Assembly (NCBI GenBank): GCA_963771885.1
Contig: CAVYVF010000022.1
Location: forward strand, 224,001 to 288,000
DNA: 64,000 nucleotides
Source: Candidatus Bathyarchaeota archaeon
GTDB taxonomy: Archaea > Thermoproteota > Bathyarchaeia > TCS64
Direction of reading: 5' to 3'
The notes beneath the pieces were generated by a model that did no database searches, had not been told where the DNA came from, and saw only the letters and a list, made by a program, of their open reading frames with translations. Shown piece by piece: positions 1,738 to 16,046 of this stretch. Within the stretch, counting starts at the first letter, position 1; every line of letters starts with the position of its first letter. The position numbers and the translations under genes are program-made.

Positions 1738-1961
1738 TGACTGACAAGGTACTTGACTGCACGGGGCTCTTCTGCCCCGAACCCGTCTTCAGGACACGCA
1801 TGGCGCTCGACGAGCTCGCCTCGGGACAGACACTTGAGGTCCACGCCGACGACCCAGCAGCCTTCGAGGACCTCCGCAGGCTCACGGAGCGCCTAGGCCA
1901 CACCGTCGTCTCCATAAAGAAGGAAGGCGACGAGACCACCATCGTCATCAAGAAGAAGTAG
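1737..1961 (+). CDS. TusA/SirA-family sulfur carrier
   Basis: LDCTGLFCPEP motif, 74 aa. Confidence 0.9.
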   Translation: MTDKVLDCTGLFCPEPVFRTRMALDELASGQTLEVHADDPAAFEDLRRLTERLGHTVVSIKKEGDETTIVIKKK

Positions 1962-7109: not shown

Positions 7110-7454
7110 ATGATAAGCTCCAAGATTCGCATCAAGGTCCAGAGCGTCCGCTCAGTTAAGGACCCAGAGAACAGGGAGTGCTTCCAGATCGAGTTTGTCG
7201 AGGTCCGCCAGCGCCCACCCATGGTTATGATGAGCAACCCAGAGGTCCCCGACGAGATCAATCAGATGGTCGTTCAGGTCACGAAGAGCTTCCAGGGCTT
7301 CATGCCCGGCGGAGGCGCGAAGGAGTACGAGCAGATGAAGATCACCCTGATAATGACGGGTGAGGAGCTTGAGAGCTTCAGGCTCAAGCCCTACCCGAAC
7401 CAGCTCTATGAGCTGACCATCACCGATGGCGCGCTGAGCTTCGCCGAGGTCTAG
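7110..7454 (+). CDS. Arcadin-1-like protein
   Basis: 114 aa; DP...I(E/D)xVE, PGGG, ITLxxTxEExExF pattern resembles crenarchaeal arcadin-1 (from memory). Confidence 0.65.
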   Translation: MISSKIRIKVQSVRSVKDPENRECFQIEFVEVRQRPPMVMMSNPEVPDEINQMVVQVTKSFQGFMPGGGAKEYEQMKITLIMTGEELESFRLKPYPNQLYELTITDGALSFAEV

Positions 7455-7500
7455 GCAACCTATTAATCCAGCCCCGCCCAACCCTCAGACGATAGCCCCT

Positions 7501-7839
7501 TTGTCAATCACGGAGATCCTCTACACGGACTGGGACACCGCCGTCTCCAAGGCGGAGGGTCCAGTTGTCGTAGAGTTCTGGCATGTGAACTGTCCGACCT
7601 GCAAGAAGATCGAGACGGCGGTCCAGGAACTACCCGGAAAAATCGGGAAGGCTAAGCTCATTCGGCTCAACGTCCTAACTGACAGGGAGACCCGCAAACT
7701 GGCGATCGGGAAGGGCGTCATAGGCACGCCCACATTCAAAGTTTATTGCAGGGGCGTAGAGATCGGTGAGGTCGTCGGCCTCGAGACGCTCACCAACTTG
7801 GTTGGAACGCTAAACAACATCCTGAAGGACTGCGCCTGA
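7501..7839 (+). CDS. Thioredoxin family protein
   Basis: VVVEFWHVNCPTC; GTPTF cis-Pro motif. Confidence 0.88.
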   Translation: MSITEILYTDWDTAVSKAEGPVVVEFWHVNCPTCKKIETAVQELPGKIGKAKLIRLNVLTDRETRKLAIGKGVIGTPTFKVYCRGVEIGEVVGLETLTNLVGTLNNILKDCA

Positions 7840-7848
7840 GGACCTTGT

Positions 7849-8766
7849 ATGTACGACGTGATCGTTCTTGGGGCTGGCCCCGCTGGATTGACCGCGGCGC
7901 TCTACACGGCGCGTGCGAAGATGAAGACACTTGTCGTCGCCGGCCCGATGGTCGGCGGTCAGATCGCCTTCACATACCAGGTAGACAACTACCCCGGCTT
8001 TGCTGAGGGGATAACGGGGCCTGACCTCTCATACAAGTTCAAGGTACACGCGGAGAGGTTTGGCGCCGAGTTTCTCGACGCCTCAGCGACGGAGGTGGAC
8101 TTCTCGGGGAACCCATACAAGATTATGGTCGGTGAGAGGGTGTTCGAGGCTAGGTCCATTATTGTCGCAATGGGGATGAATCACAGGAAGCTAGGCGTCC
8201 CAGGCGAGGACAGGCTCATGGGGAGGGGCGTCTTCGTCTGCGCCACATGTGACGCTGCCTTCTACGAGGATCGTAAGGCGGTTGTTGTAGGCGGAGGCGA
8301 CTCAGCGATACAGGAGGCATTGGACCTCGCGAAGTTCGCCTCCGAGGTGACGATCGTCCACAGGAGGGGTGAGGCACGCGCTTGCAGGTGCCTCATTGAG
8401 AAGGCGATAAACGAGCCCAGGATAAGGTTTCAATACAACACAGAGGTCACCGAGATACTCGGGGACAAGAGGGTGAGCGGGGTCAGGCTCAGGGACCTGA
8501 AAACGGAAGAGAGCCGCGTCGTTGAGGCTGATGGGGTCCTCCTCGCCATAGGATGGGACCCCAACACATCCATACTGCGAGGGCACATTGAACTAGACGA
8601 GGTCGGGTTTCCACTGACGGATGGTGTGAAGACGGGAATTAAGGGGGTCTTCGTGGGGGGTGATCTAATCGACAAGACTTACAGGCAAGTCGTGACGAGC
8701 TGCGGGAGCGGCTGCGCTGCCGCCTTAGAAGCAGTGCACTGGCTCGAGGGAGTTCCCAGCGGGTAG
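7849..8766 (+). CDS. trxB: Thioredoxin reductase
   Basis: GAGPAG, CATCD, GGGDSA, HRR. Confidence 0.93.
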   Translation: MYDVIVLGAGPAGLTAALYTARAKMKTLVVAGPMVGGQIAFTYQVDNYPGFAEGITGPDLSYKFKVHAERFGAEFLDASATEVDFSGNPYKIMVGERVFEARSIIVAMGMNHRKLGVPGEDRLMGRGVFVCATCDAAFYEDRKAVVVGGGDSAIQEALDLAKFASEVTIVHRRGEARACRCLIEKAINEPRIRFQYNTEVTEILGDKRVSGVRLRDLKTEESRVVEADGVLLAIGWDPNTSILRGHIELDEVGFPLTDGVKTGIKGVFVGGDLIDKTYRQVVTSCGSGCAAALEAVHWLEGVPSG

Positions 8767-9718: not shown

Positions 9719-10895
9719 TTGATGATCTCGGTCAAAGAGGGCATATACTGGGTCGGTGCCGTGGACTGGAGTATAAGGAACTTCCACGGCTACATCACAC
9801 ACAGGGGGAGCAGTTACAACTCGTACCTCGTCGTCGACGAGAAGGTGGCGCTAATTGACTTCGTCAAAGCGCCGTTCGCCGAGGAGCAAGTCACCCACAT
9901 TAGTGAAGTCATTGACCCCAAGAAGGTCGACTACATCGTCGCCAACCACGCGGAGCCTGACCACTCGGGCAGCATAAGGCGCGTCATCGAGGCATGTCCA
10001 AACGCCGAGGTCATAGCAACCGAGCGTTGCATCAACACCCTACGGAAGTACTATGGCGACGACCTCAAGATCACCCCGATTGAGAAAAAGCCAACGCTAA
10101 AGCTGGGGAAGAGGAGCCTCACATTCGTCCCAGTCCCCATGGCGCACTGGCCCGACTCGATGGTCAGTTACATGCCCGAGGAGAAGCTGCTCTTTAGTAA
10201 CGACGCCTTCGGCCAGCATCTCGCCTCCAGTGGGCGCTTCGACGATGAGGTAGACGAGGGAGAGCTAATTCAGGAGGCATCTACCTACTACGCGAACATA
10301 CTGATGCCCCTTTGGAGGAGCGTCTCGCGGGCTTTAAAGGCGCTCGAAGGTGTACAGGTCGAGATGATAGCGCCGAGTCACGGCATAATCTGGCGGAAGA
10401 ATCCAGGGAGGATACTCGGGCTTTACCAGAGGTGGATCGCTGGCGAGACAAAGAAAAGGGCGGTAATCGTCTATGATACGATGTGGGGGAGCTACGCAGG
10501 TTCTCGCACGCGCCATCGCAGACGGGATTGCCTCTAAGGGTGTGGAGGTGAGGCTCCACAGCCTCCAGTCGAGCCCGAACAGCGACGTAATTGCCGATCT
10601 CCTAGAGGCGAAAGCGATCGTCGTCGGCTCCCCGACGCTTAATAACCAAATCTTCCCGACGGTCGCCGGCTTCCTCGCCTACATGAGGGGATTGAAGCCG
10701 ATGAACAAGATCGGTGGCGCCTTCGGCAGCTACGGCTGGGCGGGCGGGGCGAAGAAGATAGTCGAGGCGGAGATGCAGGCTGCGGGGATACAACTCGTCG
10801 AGAGCGACATCGACTTTGTCTTCAAGCCGAATGGCGACGAGGCGAAGCGTGCCTACGAGTGGGGCACCGCGCTGGGCGAGAAGATAGTTGCCTAA
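9719..10895 (+). CDS. fprA: FprA-type flavodiiron protein; +1 frameshift in G run 10485-10489
   Basis: HAEPDH, HWPD, NDAFG, PSHG, then flavodoxin domain (GSPT, FGSYGW) in another frame. Confidence 0.9.
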
Positions 10896-11009: not shown

Positions 11010-11600
11010 TTAGATGAGGATGGTGTGCATATAGTAGCTCATCTGGAACCAGGTGAGTACACTGCTGAGCACGGCACCGACAGCTACTTGCATAACCGTG
11101 TGTGCCTTCAACTCGACCCTCGCCCAGGCGACGGGTATGACGACGAGAAGGAGAGGCAGCATTACGCCTCCGAGGAGGAAAATGAGAGCCGTCACGGGAC
11201 CCGTAACGCCGCTCGCGTGTATACTAATCTTCCACTTAAGTGTGATGACTATAAGGACGAGCCCGTTGACGAAGTAGCAAGCCATCAGCGCTGTCACAGC
11301 CGCTGGTGCCGAGACAAGTATCAGGCTTAAGCACCCGAGGAGGTAGAAGAAGGTCGTCCAGAGGAAGGGTAGGAAGCGCGTCGCCCTGTCTCGGGCGTAA
11401 AAGTCCTTTATCAAGTCGAGCTTGAGTAGCCCGATGACCATCGCGAGGGGTAGGACGCAGCCGAAGAGGCTGGTTATCGCGATGAGGAGCCCCGCCGAAT
11501 CTGCGCCGTAGAATAGTATAAGGGGAATGAACGTTACTACGGTTATCAGGGGGGCGTTGAGCGCAGCGGATAGACGTGATGCGAGCTTCGTCTTGTCCAA
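11010..11600 (-). CDS. PAP2-like integral membrane protein
   Basis: Multiple TM segments; KISIH and WARVELKAHT motifs. Confidence 0.7.
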   Translation of the reverse strand: MDKTKLASRLSAALNAPLITVVTFIPLILFYGADSAGLLIAITSLFGCVLPLAMVIGLLKLDLIKDFYARDRATRFLPFLWTTFFYLLGCLSLILVSAPAAVTALMACYFVNGLVLIVITLKWKISIHASGVTGPVTALIFLLGGVMLPLLLVVIPVAWARVELKAHTVMQVAVGAVLSSVLTWFQMSYYMHTILI

Positions 11601-11641: not shown

Positions 11642-11782
11642 CTACGCCTTTTTAACAGTTTTCTTTTGTAGTCGCTCGCAGCAGCAGATGAGGGTCTTCT
11701 CATCGCCCTTGCCAACCATTAGGTCACAGCTCTCCCCCTTCTGGTACCCGCACATAGGGCACTTCTCTACCTTCTCATTCAC
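11642..11782 (-). CDS. Cys-rich microprotein (46 aa, CPxCG)
   Basis: GTG overlaps iscU stop (GTGA); MNEKVEKCPMCGYQKGESCDLMVGKGDEKTLICCCERLQKKTVKKA*. Confidence 0.65.
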   Translation of the reverse strand: MNEKVEKCPMCGYQKGESCDLMVGKGDEKTLICCCERLQKKTVKKA

Positions 11783-12159
11783 TTCCTCTTCTCCTCCTTC
11801 TTTTTCCGGTAGTCCTTGATAGCCTCCTGTAGGGCGTCCGAGGCGAGGTTGCTGCAGTGCATTTTAACTGGTGGTAGCCCGTCGAGTGCGTCGGCGACAC
11901 TCTGACGGGTGATCTTCTCCGCCTCATCGACTGTCTTGCCGAGCGCTAGCTCGGTGGTCATGCTGCTCGTCGCGATGGCGGCGCCGCAGCCGTAGGTCTT
12001 GAACTTGATGTCGGCGATCTTGTCGCCTTTGACCTTGATATACATGGTCATCATATCGCCGCAGACGGGGTTGCCGACGGTGCCGACGCCGTCTGCGTCC
12101 TTGATCTCGCCGACGTTGCGGGGGTTCTTGAAGTGGTCCATGACCTTGTCGCTGTACAC
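11779..12159 (-). CDS. iscU: Fe-S scaffold IscU/NifU
   Basis: NPRN, CGD, GCG, LPPVKMHC. Confidence 0.95.
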   Translation of the reverse strand: MYSDKVMDHFKNPRNVGEIKDADGVGTVGNPVCGDMMTMYIKVKGDKIADIKFKTYGCGAAIATSSMTTELALGKTVDEAEKITRQSVADALDGLPPVKMHCSNLASDALQEAIKDYRKKKEEKRK

Positions 12160-12160
12160 T

Positions 12161-13360
12161 CTACTTCAGCTCCTCTGGGGTTATGCTCGACATCGCCCTC
12201 AGCCGCTTGACGATGGCTGGGAGTTTCTCGATAACGTAGTCAATCTGCTCCTTATTATTGGCTTTGCCGAGAGTGAAGACGAGGCTCCCGTGGGCGTCCT
12301 CCGGCTTGAGGCCTGTCGCTAGTAGGCAGGCGCTGGGCTCCAGGGTCTTTGCGGCGCAAGCTGAGCCGGTGTTGACCTGGACGCCTACATCGTCGAGGCT
12401 TAGGATGAGTGCCTCGCCTTCGATGTAGCTGAAGCGGATGTTGGCGTTGTTGGGGGCTCTATTGGTGGGGTGTCCGTTGAGGTAGGACTCGGGTATGGTG
12501 GAGGTTACGCCTTTGATTAGGTAGTCCCGTAGCTCGGTGAGGCGCTTTGCCTCCGTCGGGTAGCTCCTGCTTGGCGAGTCTCTGCGGCCTTGCCGAATCC
12601 GACGATGCCTGGGGTGTTCTCGGTACCGCTGCGCAGCCCTTGCTCCTGACCGCCGCCGATGATGACTGGGCGGATGCGCATGCTCTTCTTCATGTAGAGT
12701 GCGCCGACGCCCTTGGGTCCGCTGATATCGTTGCTGCTCAGAGTCATCATGTCGATGTCCATGGCTTTTAACATCGAGCGGTATCTTGCCGAGTGCTGCC
12801 GTAGCGTCTGTGTGGAAGAAAGCGCCCTTCTCGTGGGCGATCTTGGCGGCTTCCTCGATGGGCTCAATGGTGCCTATCTCGCCGTTCACCGCCATCACGG
12901 AGACGATGACGGTCTTGTCGTTTACGAGTTCCTCGAGCTTGTCGAGGAGAACGACGCCGTACTTGTCCACGGGCGCCTGCAGGTATTCCCAGCCGCTGCG
13001 GGTGAGCTCCTTGCAGATGTTGACGGTGCTTATGTGCTCGACGGCGCTCGAGACGACGCGGTTGCCCTTGTTCTTGTAGCGGTTGGCGCCGCCGATGATG
13101 GCGAGGTTTGTCGCCTCAGTGGCGGAGGCTGTGAAGAATATCTCGGCGGGTTCCGCGTTTATGAGGTCGGCTATCTGTTGACGCGCCTTGTTTATTGCGC
13201 TTAGCGCCTTGAAGCCCTCACTGTGGAAGCTGCTCGGGTTTCCGACGTGTTCCGTGAAGTAGGGGAGCATCTCCTCGAGCACGCGCGGGTCGACGGGGGC
13301 TCCTGAGCCGTTGTCGAGGTATGCCTTCAAGTCTCTCGCCTTACGGGTGGATTGGGGCAT
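12161..13360 (-). CDS. iscS: IscS/NifS-family protein with Asp at the PLP lysine; three +1 indels (about 12767, 12579, 12559) that sum to in-frame
   Basis: [36 protein letters not shown]; middle segment in shifted frames. Confidence 0.9.
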
Positions 13361-13433
13361 TTGGGGGATTAAAACCTTCAGCGCGGTAAGGCTTATGGCG
13401 TGCTTTAACTGCTCATAATGAGAAAAAATATTT

Positions 13434-14385: not shown

Positions 14386-14896
14386 TTACCACTCATTGAT
14401 GTGGATCTTCTTCTCGTCGTACCTGTTGCCCGGAGGCTTCTCCTCAGAAGGCCGCCCGACTGAGATGATGCAGAAAGGCACCTTCCTCTCAGGTATCTTG
14501 AGAAGTTCGCGGAGCCCCTTGACGAGTGCCTCATTCGGGTATACGCCTAACCAGACGGCGCCGAGGCCCGTCGCCTTCGCGGCGAGGAGTATGTTCTCCG
14601 TCGACGCCGCACAGTCCTGCACCCAAAAGCCAGTGCCTGCCTCGAGGTCGAGGTCGCCACATACCACGATGGCGAGGGCGGCCTGTTCAAGCATTTTCGA
14701 GTAGTTGTGGAACTTGGGTATCGCCGAGAGCTTGGCCCTATCCTTGACGACGACGTAGTGCCAGGGCTGTCTGTTGTGAGCGGACGGCGCCGCCATCCCG
14801 GCCTCGAGCAGGCACTTGACCTCCGCAGTCGGTCACGGGCTCGCCCGTGTACTTCCTTATGCTTCTCCTCCCGAGTATAGATTCCATAGCTTCCAT
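14386..14896 (-). CDS. Nitroreductase family protein; +1 frameshift near 14827
   Basis: ILGRRSIRKY N-terminus in one frame; AAPSAHNRQPW, QDC, GLGAVW in another. Confidence 0.87.
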
Positions 14897-14898
14897 GT

Positions 14899-15405
14899 TT
14901 ACCATTTCTCCATATGGACGGACTCCGTGAGCGGCTTCGCCTTGCGTGGTCCCGGCTTCTCGTCGGGGAGGCCGAAGGTGACTATGCAGACGACGGTCGC
15001 CTCGGAGGGGATGCCGAATTCCTTCTTTACCTCGTTTTCCTTGAAGTCACCGATCCAGCAGCTGCCGACGCCCTGAACCTCGGCGGCAAGCACCATGTTC
15101 TGCAGTGCTATCGTCGTGTCTATGACGCCGAACTTTCTGCTGGTGTCATCGAATGGTAGGGCGACACCTATGACGGCGAAGGCGGCGTCCTTGACGAAGC
15201 CGGACCACCTGCCCTTGGAAAGCTTCTCTTTGGCGGCAGTATTCTCGCAGACTACGAAGTGCCACGGCTGCCGGTTGGCGGCGCTCGGGGCGAGGCGTCC
15301 AGCCTCGAGTATCTTCGCCTTCACCTCAGTGGGGACGGGCTCCTTCTTGTACCGCCGAATGCTACGGCGGCCCAATATCTTGTCGATGCAGCTCAGAAGT
15401 CTCAC
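14899..15405 (-). CDS. Nitroreductase family protein (tandem paralog)
   Basis: RRSIRRY, APSAANRQPW, GVGSCWIG. Confidence 0.9.
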   Translation of the reverse strand: MRLLSCIDKILGRRSIRRYKKEPVPTEVKAKILEAGRLAPSAANRQPWHFVVCENTAAKEKLSKGRWSGFVKDAAFAVIGVALPFDDTSRKFGVIDTTIALQNMVLAAEVQGVGSCWIGDFKENEVKKEFGIPSEATVVCIVTFGLPDEKPGPRKAKPLTESVHMEKW

Positions 15406-15474
15406 CGGGGTATCGTGGTTTCATGGGTTTTTAGGGTGATCGCCCTTTTACCGGGGCAGCGCATAGCTTATGCC

Positions 15475-15849
15475 ATGGAGATCAGGGTGGAGAGGGGGCT
15501 CCTCGAGGAGATGCTCGCCTTCGCCAAGGACTGTCACCCGCAAGAGGCTATACTCCTGCTCAGGGGCGAGGCGAAGAAGGAGGCAATCACCCTCAGCGAC
15601 TACCTCTTTCCACCCTATGCAAGGACGGACAGCGTCTCCGCCAGCTACCCCATCTACATGCTCCCCATCGACTTCTCGATTATGGGCACGCTCCACAGTC
15701 ACCCATCCGGCTCGGTTGAAGCCTCGGCGGTGGATATGTCGAACATGTATGGGAGGTTCAGCATGATTACGGCGCACCCCTATGGGTTAGGCGACGTGGC
15801 GGCCTACAACAAGCAGGGCGAGCGAATCATGATACGCGTGACCGACTAG
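15475..15849 (+). CDS. JAMM/MPN+ metalloprotease
   Basis: HPQE...HSHPSG...S..D JAMM motif. Confidence 0.88.
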   Translation: MEIRVERGLLEEMLAFAKDCHPQEAILLLRGEAKKEAITLSDYLFPPYARTDSVSASYPIYMLPIDFSIMGTLHSHPSGSVEASAVDMSNMYGRFSMITAHPYGLGDVAAYNKQGERIMIRVTD

Positions 15850-16046
15850 CCGCCGCTGACGATGGGGAATAAGGCGACGCGGTCCCCCGCCTTTAGCGGC
15901 TTCGACGGCCACCCACCCTCACCATTCACAAGGACGACGATCACACGCTGTTCATAGGCGTACCGTATCTCCGGTCCCAGGCCTTCGATTAACTCGCGCA
16001 GCGTCGCGGGCTTCTCCACGGTTATGGTCTGGGGGCTGGGGAACAT
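15846..16046 (-). CDS. MoaD/ThiS/SAMP ubiquitin-like protein
   Basis: VLVNG...LKAGDRVALFPIVSGG with C-terminal GG. Confidence 0.85.
   Translation of the reverse strand: MFPSPQTITVEKPATLRELIEGLGPEIRYAYEQRVIVVLVNGEGGWPSKPLKAGDRVALFPIVSGG

Follow-up and report, generated by a model that had tools for sequence, protein, structure and literature searches.

Introduction

The described system closest to the operon analyzed here is the IscS2-IscU pair of Archaeoglobus fulgidus. According to PMC8918507, the A. fulgidus IscS has Asp199 and bound PMP, lacks desulfurase activity and contributes a Cys ligand to the IscU cluster. Sulfide is given there as its hypothesised sulfur source, and the supply of sulfur to the lysine-less IscS-IscU pair is named as an open question (PMC8918507). 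IscS1 of Methanosarcina acetivorans is also described as having no catalytic lysine (PMC7585200). MIS, the minimal iron-sulfur system, is presented as a cysteine desulfurase and a scaffold without additional components, and it is called unclear which electron donors or further factors serve it (PMC13066941).

For the third gene of our operon the relevant family is the TRASH domain, described as binding metal through four Cys, with a C-terminal C-x3-C pair completing the ligands (PMC4626032). Among TRASH proteins, a metallochaperone role is described for CopM and MerH (PMC5328820, PMC3600143), CopM is also described as a chaperone (PMC5328820, PMC7830388), and a small TRASH protein beside merA is the arrangement given for MerH (PMC3600143, PMC3466566).

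A lysine-less IscS is in itself already known, as the A. fulgidus type, and what we add is its wide spread in uncultured archaea. Our operon lies in a 64,000-nucleotide stretch of a Candidatus Bathyarchaeota assembly (hereafter the window; GCA_963771885.1, contig CAVYVF010000022.1), from a genome of 2.46 Mb that is 92% complete. In the IscS tree and the IscU tree alike, the proteins of its relatives group with records titled Bathyarchaeota, which points to Bathyarchaeia as its class. An original prediction, made from the letters of the window alone, had described it as an Fe-S operon with an unusual IscS and a Cys-rich microprotein.

Results

Operon layout

Three genes follow each other on the minus strand in the order iscS, iscU and a 46-aa ORF. 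A single base (12160) lies between the iscS stop and the GTG of iscU, and the GTGA at 11779-11782 is an iscU stop that overlaps the start of the small ORF, so the three genes are as tightly coupled as had been predicted.

We annotate iscS at 12161-13330, with a likely start at TTG 13330 and not at ATG 13360. Ahead of the gene is a BRE plus TATA-like block (CTGAAGG TTTTAAT, 13368-13381, minus strand) that we take as a putative promoter, and the same or nearly the same block stands 5' of iscS in all six same-genus stretches that we read. The sequence AAGGCGA is conserved ahead of the iscS start as well. We favor TTG 13330 because of this conserved promoter-like block and the conserved AAGGCGA; ATG 13360 is just 8 bases beyond the conserved TATA-like box.

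The iscU gene (11779-12159, minus strand) encodes a 126-aa scaffold matching Pfam NifU_N. It scores over the NCBIfam TIGR03419 cut-off (212 bits vs 187.9), and all of the features of an IscU/NifU-N scaffold are present: three Cys (C33, C58, C102), an Asp (D35), a His (H101) and LPPVK. In four relatives we considered a TGA inside IscU as a selenocysteine codon and rejected this, since the TGA is a normal stop. In one genome (G378, locus L226:2262-3752, plus strand) IscU contains an intein, itself with a LAGLIDADG domain, that sits just ahead of the first cluster-ligand Cys, making that Cys the first residue after the intein.

Some neighboring genes were also recorded. Next after the microprotein in most loci within the family, although not beyond it, is a gene for a 196-aa membrane protein (window 11010-11600, minus strand), one homologue of which has a faint PAP2 match (E 0.008). 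Genes at window 7110-8766 (plus strand) and 15259-16046 encode, upstream, an Arcadin-1-like protein, a thioredoxin and a thioredoxin reductase and, downstream, a JAB-domain protein and a ThiS-like protein. Small desulforedoxin-like Cys-rich proteins are found near the operon at L035:736-873, L052:3670-3792 and L060:1014-1142.

An Asp-type IscS

The codon at the position of the PLP lysine (12727-12729, minus strand) is GAT, as the original prediction had read it, and it belongs to an SSND motif. Both residues of the usual SxHK are replaced, the His by Asn and the Schiff-base Lys by Asp. The loop Cys of GSAC can be read at 12356-12358 (minus strand) and is retained, again as predicted. The window Asp aligns with Asp199 of A. 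fulgidus (ssndiygpkg in PDB 4eb5, ssnkiygpkg in the D199K chain 4r5f). The intact IscS of a relative (L002) has 4eb5 as its best PDB match at 434 bits, compared with 350 bits for the best chain from outside Archaeoglobus, which supports the assignment to the A. fulgidus type. The IscS of another relative (L003) falls under every NCBIfam cut-off shown.

We did not find Lys at this codon in any of the closest loci: the motif was read in 28 of the 30, with Asp in 27 and Glu in one. In locus L026 (genome G028) it is Glu that replaces Asp at the PLP-lysine position. The loop Cys is at the GSAC column in 118 of 119 Asp-type proteins. The Cys loop is altered (SSSPC, TSSAC) in some Asp-type IscS, four of them from Thermoplasmata (L044, L046, L061, L099) and four from records titled Hermod- or Thorarchaeota (L076, L078, L083, L110); the Thermoplasmata copies have no iscU downstream within the DNA fetched. 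Six loci (L158, L161, L162, L164, L168, L169) have a more diverged IscS with neither SxHK nor SSND, beside a longer IscU and often adjoining a SufS gene.

Frameshifts and assembly quality

The motif and the Cys that had been assigned to iscS are both there, but the 399-aa ORF at 12161-13360 has no in-frame SSND. Between 12555 and 12771 (minus strand) the assembly has three single extra bases, at about 12762-12771, 12576-12580 and 12555-12560, which appear as gaps against all four relatives aligned. They put SSND out of frame with both the start and the loop Cys, and split the Pfam Aminotran_5 match over two frames, while the three together restore the frame. We believe that these bases are probably assembly errors, and we infer that iscS is intact in the cell.

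It would be a different matter if iscS were a true pseudogene in a decaying operon, and the crowding of three insertions inside about 215 bases could be read in that way. So could the control set from the same assembly, where just 1 of 21 conserved ORFs is frameshifted, except that this ORF encodes an essential protein, RNA polymerase subunit B. Damage is also not confined to iscS in its own neighborhood, since the FprA-like flavoprotein is split in all five queries and an SMC-like gene nearby is split too. The remaining genes of the operon do not look decayed, with iscU 95% and the microprotein 96% identical to the nearest relative, and we found no SufB in the host genome as an alternative. 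Taking these together, we consider a pseudogene quite unlikely.

Indel errors of the assembly are visible in the genes for the FprA-like flavoprotein and a nitroreductase (window 9719-10895, plus strand; 14386-14905, minus strand) and in rpoB (G000 C23). In public sequencing runs, which shared at most 27% of words, we found no reads of this organism over the iscS insertions and no contig that spans them. In one contig of a relative from an RNA run (about 93% alike, depth 3), the Asp codon is replaced by one for Glu, and the loose end of the contig agrees with a frame without the extra base near 12770; we did not count either observation as evidence.

Spread of the Asp type and its sulfur source

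A pattern scan of GTDB for the Asp-type IscS gave at least 120 loci, and the hosts among the matches listed are Bathyarchaeia, Hadarchaeota, Asgard groups, Thermoplasmata, Methanoperedens, Geoglobus and some bacteria. Within the class of the host, the Asp motif is present in 80 of 201 genomes, a count from which we dropped an Asp-pattern match in G402 and a second match in G355 that do not read as the IscS motif. In a quick tree, 116 of 120 Asp/Glu IscS proteins group with Geoglobus (support 86); the tree, with two changes, does not establish a single origin.

SufB was found in 13 of the 80 Asp genomes vs 70 of the 121 others, in a comparison where kin are not independent and all genomes are incomplete. 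A SufB was likewise not found in the 92%-complete host genome. Judged by gene content, these lineages likely rely on the Asp-IscS-IscU pair as their main scaffold system.

The original prediction had suggested a sulfide-fed module, and as stated this is not supported. The host genome encodes two TusA and a SufS-like protein of the Lys type, in which HK and GHHC motifs can be read (449 bits vs a cut-off of 475). A tusA in the window (1746-1955 as the Pfam match range, plus strand) is about 11.4 kb away and is a candidate persulfide carrier with a possible role for the operon; in several relatives tusA is directly 5' of iscS. Among the GTDB matches listed, 47 of the 54 Asp-IscS loci with full flanks have TusA or DsrE no more than 2.5 kb away (13 of 17 loci that have the microprotein and 34 of 37 that do not), a count that leaves out 40 of the 120 GTDB loci, which had no flanks, and 26 of the other 80, which had under 1500 bases on a side. 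Because of the SufS-like protein and the TusA/DsrE neighbors, we think that a persulfide relay is no less likely than a supply of free sulfide. A strict pattern for the HK-type motif gave no match in 23 of the 80 Asp genomes, which are incomplete, and 21 of these 23 are also without SufB. A supply of sulfide is plausible in those 23.

A conserved microprotein

The 46-aa ORF (11642-11782, minus strand) was predicted as a six-Cys protein. Six Cys are present, at 8, 11, 19, 33, 34 and 35, but just five of them (C8, C11, C19, C34 and C35) are invariant in the 57 aligned members, and C33 is variable. Six Cys alone would be weak evidence for a gene, because the host genome has 7352 ORFs of 40-60 aa and 58 of them contain six or more, so it is conservation that carries the case. 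Over 66 pairs from 12 same-genus copies pS is 0.763 and pN is 0.143, and both Cys codons are in use at all six Cys positions in these copies. Among the loci of the 29 closest relatives, the ORF is intact after iscU in 26, fused to the C-terminus of IscU in one (L019), broken in one (L026) and not found in one (L030). With both the peptide and five of its cysteines conserved in this way, the sequence evidence tells us that the ORF is a real gene.

Homologues are carried as hypothetical proteins in public sets. A literature search that covered few subscription journals gave no paper on this microprotein or on a TRASH protein with IscU, although genome papers may list it in their supplements. AlphaFold2 models built from 25 and 57 sequences had pLDDT of 52.5 and 53.1 with a helix at 36-42 only, which is too poor to choose between readings of its function.

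What the microprotein travels with

In 61 related genomes, all 29 matches at E<1e-8 are directly after iscU, and so are all 14 strong loci fetched from a search of the phylum. At locus L039 the microprotein stays with iscU even though about 890 bases part iscS from iscU. In the class sample of 201 genomes, 71 have the microprotein: 65 have both it and the Asp motif and 6 have it alone, while 15 have just the motif and 115 have neither. By their listed places, the two are adjacent on one contig in 61 of the 65 genomes with both and on different contigs in 4. Of the six microprotein-only genomes, one has Glu for Asp and the other five belong to a single family (f21), where iscU and the microprotein have no adjacent iscS, tusA is upstream in four, and a Lys-type IscS is elsewhere in the four of five genomes in which the motif was read. 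In that family (L225-L228, L218) the tusA-iscU-microprotein operon is followed by a HAD hydrolase gene and faces an FdhD sulfurtransferase gene.

We also looked at loci with the other type of IscS, and none of the Lys-type iscS-iscU loci had the microprotein (20 further loci fetched). The Asp loci that we read in Asgard archaea, Methanoperedens, Thermoplasmata, Geoglobus and bacteria do not have it, and it is present in Hadarchaeota and Terraquivivens records and in ones titled Methanocellales. The class of Geoglobus had two matches in 81 genomes, with no iscU within the DNA fetched (one flank was short). Since 36 of 99 classified IscU next to an Asp-type IscS are without the microprotein, and nearly all of the genomes in the class of Geoglobus have no match, it must be dispensable. 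Stand-alone copies away from iscU occur at L229:3202-3354 and L230:3161-3322 (both in G367), where Ser takes the place of the second Cys of CC, and at L254 and L255.

The original prediction had proposed the microprotein as a dedicated third component. A conserved gene tied to the operon is what we find, but it is not dedicated to the Asp variant, with 15 of 80 Asp genomes lacking it and 6 genomes having it without the Asp motif. The motif-only genomes, family f21 and the stand-alone copies lead us to conclude that the tie is to a branch of IscU and not to the loss of the lysine. That it is a tie to IscU follows from all strong matches being after iscU, from the L019 fusion and from the retention beside iscU in f21 and L039.

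These distributions bear on whether the microprotein could be a sulfur carrier that makes up for a dead IscS, which the original prediction allowed as one option. The CC or CCC near the C-terminus could provide free thiols, and 4 of the 17 full-flank listed loci with the microprotein have no TusA/DsrE nearby. However, the other 13 of those 17 do have TusA/DsrE, and in family f21 the microprotein is kept beside iscU in five genomes whose IscS, where the motif was read (four of five), has Lys. Its ancestry points to metal binding instead (see below), and we give a sulfur carrier very little credence.

TRASH/YHS ancestry

The window microprotein matches no Pfam or NCBIfam family, and no member of its family is over a Pfam cut-off, the best being 29.6 bits vs 30.3 for YHS. 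More distant members are clearer, as all 16 that we scanned match YHS, TRASH or zf-FCS models at E<=0.01, and the family grades continuously into members with the pattern CxxC...C...FCCxxC. When 301 genomes of the phylum were searched, the iscU-linked matches were followed in rank by 12 small proteins encoded next to merA-like genes, and a profile comparison with the merA-linked TRASH proteins gave 83% at E 9e-6. The TRASH/YHS fold is a treble-clef.

The N-terminal CxxC pair of TRASH/YHS is present as C8 and C11 in 57 of 57 members. The C-terminal C-x3-C pair is incomplete in the window copy, which has C34 but Leu at 38. Of 69 iscU-linked copies, 28 retain the last TRASH Cys, 6 have His in its place and 35 have lost it, the window copy among them, so the metal site in the window copy is not canonical. 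The middle Cys is present in all 69 iscU-linked copies vs none of the 12 merA-linked ones. By sequence, then, the microprotein is TRASH-derived, and the window copy has fewer than the four ligands. In a TRASH tree, a single clade for the iscU-linked copies is neither shown nor rejected (p-AU 0.197, 49 columns). The ESM Atlas gave weak unnamed matches for the window protein, and for member L060 unnamed clusters at 0.95-0.96 with TRASH-clan leads under 0.9. Two other candidate relatives were rejected: the match to desulforedoxin is not significant (E 0.076) and the TRASH link is continuous instead, and a match of the family to a phage zinc finger is not significant either.

Relatives of this kind could mean that the microprotein senses metal, or that it is a stress protein transcribed along with the operon, without contact to IscU in either case, such as a copper or mercury buffer that hitchhikes on the operon. 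The nearest outside relatives serve mercury or copper resistance, stand-alone copies exist, the protein is basic in most members, and one source names a member "transcriptional regulator". A hitchhiker fits poorly with an overlap with the iscU stop that is kept across several archaeal groups, with the one fusion to IscU (L019) and with the lack of the middle Cys in the merA-linked copies. We consider a sensor or hitchhiker very unlikely.

The microprotein might instead take the finished cluster from IscU to its targets, like the C-terminal domains of NifU. Five invariant Cys exceed the needs of one metal site, and the L019 fusion is behind IscU at the place of the extra domains in the NifU layout (described in PMC13066941). 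None of the known carrier families of Pfam or NCBIfam resembles it, though, it is very small, and TRASH ancestry suggests the handling of single metal ions, so that a cluster carrier seems improbable to us.

Extensions of IscU

Among the 99 classified IscU that adjoin an Asp-type IscS, 63 have the microprotein, 17 have a thioredoxin-reductase-like extension, 19 have neither and none has both. The fusions are found in Methanoperedens and kin (L055, L051, L067, L068, L091, L104), in Asgard archaea (L033, L036, L037, L059, L073, L074, L096, L102) and in bacteria (L034, L079, L103). The domain is whole in Methanoperedens (about 444 aa, no CxxC) and partial in Asgard archaea and some bacteria (about 265 aa), and it is a candidate for a built-in electron supply on IscU. 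Some IscU without the microprotein have His-rich C-terminal tails (L069, L075, L080, L081).

In the ISC system the electron donor is ferredoxin. The 17 extended loci hint at electrons rather than metal at IscU, and the microprotein could itself be an electron donor, reducing the persulfide sulfur of IscU by means of a dithiol or an Fe(Cys)4 centre. The 63 and 17 with no overlap would fit this, although the two accessories sit in different clades and the exclusion may be history alone. In Methanoperedens the fused flavoprotein domain has no CxxC at the usual place, and reductases of the ferredoxin-NADP type have none at that place. The electron donor of MIS is called unclear in the review cited above (PMC13066941). 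The weak profile match to desulforedoxin (CxxC...CC, E 0.076) would also fit, but it is not significant while the TRASH link is continuous. In addition, we know of no TRASH protein that acts as an electron carrier. We regard an electron donor as unlikely, if less so than the carrier and sensor readings.

Discussion

Our preferred reading, to which we would give slightly less than an even chance, is that of a three-gene minimal operon in which an IscS without the PLP lysine partners IscU and the TRASH-derived microprotein is a predicted metal-handling accessory of IscU. By analogy with A. fulgidus, the Asp-type IscS would be a non-catalytic partner that docks IscU and lends its loop Cys as the fourth cluster ligand. 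Sulfur would arrive as persulfide from a separate Lys-type desulfurase (the SufS-like protein in this host) through TusA, or as sulfide where no Lys-type desulfurase exists. Some of the microprotein cysteines may hold a structural metal, and the subfamily-specific C19 and C35 may be spare thiols that hand iron to IscU or remove competing zinc or copper.

A bolder version, which is tentative and which we hold to be somewhat doubtful, is that the lysine-less IscS marks a distinct and widespread archaeal Fe-S system made of TusA/DsrE, Asp-IscS, IscU and one swappable accessory, and that this is the main scaffold where SufB is missing. The accessory slot would be filled by the TRASH microprotein in Bathyarchaeia and Hadarchaeota, or by the fused thioredoxin-reductase-like domain in Asgard archaea and Methanoperedens. 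The microprotein would then supply the iron or the electrons for which the minimal system has no donor so far, and so be a counterpart of frataxin or ferredoxin with a length of 46 residues.

With at least 120 GTDB loci and 80 of 201 genomes of the class, the Asp type is no oddity of Archaeoglobus. It is found mostly where SufB was not, and it has candidate partners in TusA/DsrE in front and in the TRASH microprotein or the reductase-like fusion behind IscU. All of the parts are small and soluble, so the question of sulfur supply can be tested by reconstitution. If our reading is true, TRASH domains gain a role outside heavy-metal resistance, and the microprotein is a component not described before in a minimal assembly system that is itself poorly understood.

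Comparison with known systems

The operon shares with A. fulgidus IscS2-IscU (PDB 4EB5, 4EB7, 4HVK; D199K 4R5F) the Asp of SSND, the loop Cys and a single-domain IscU partner. It differs in having a third coupled gene, whereas the passages on the A. fulgidus pair in PMC8918507 and PMC7585200 mention no third protein. Further differences are that sulfate reduction is not shown for the host of the window and that this host has a SufS-like protein. The likeness to IscS1-IscU1 of Methanosarcina acetivorans is in an IscS1 without the catalytic lysine, and is by description only (PMC7585200).

MIS (MisS-MisU) resembles the operon in pairing an IscS-like with an IscU-like protein and in having no genes for a chaperone, a ferredoxin or a carrier alongside them. 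However, MIS is defined by two components, while the window operon has a third coupled gene and an IscS without the catalytic Lys.

The microprotein resembles desulforedoxin (PDB 1CFW and related) in being tiny with CxxC and CC, and differs from it in their spacing. Its likeness to MerH and CopM, the stand-alone TRASH proteins of Sulfolobales, is in a length of about 50 aa and in a CxxC followed after about 20 residues by FCCxxC in the deeper members. In contrast to MerH and CopM, the microprotein family is linked to iscU and not to merA or copA, and it has an extra, invariant middle Cys.
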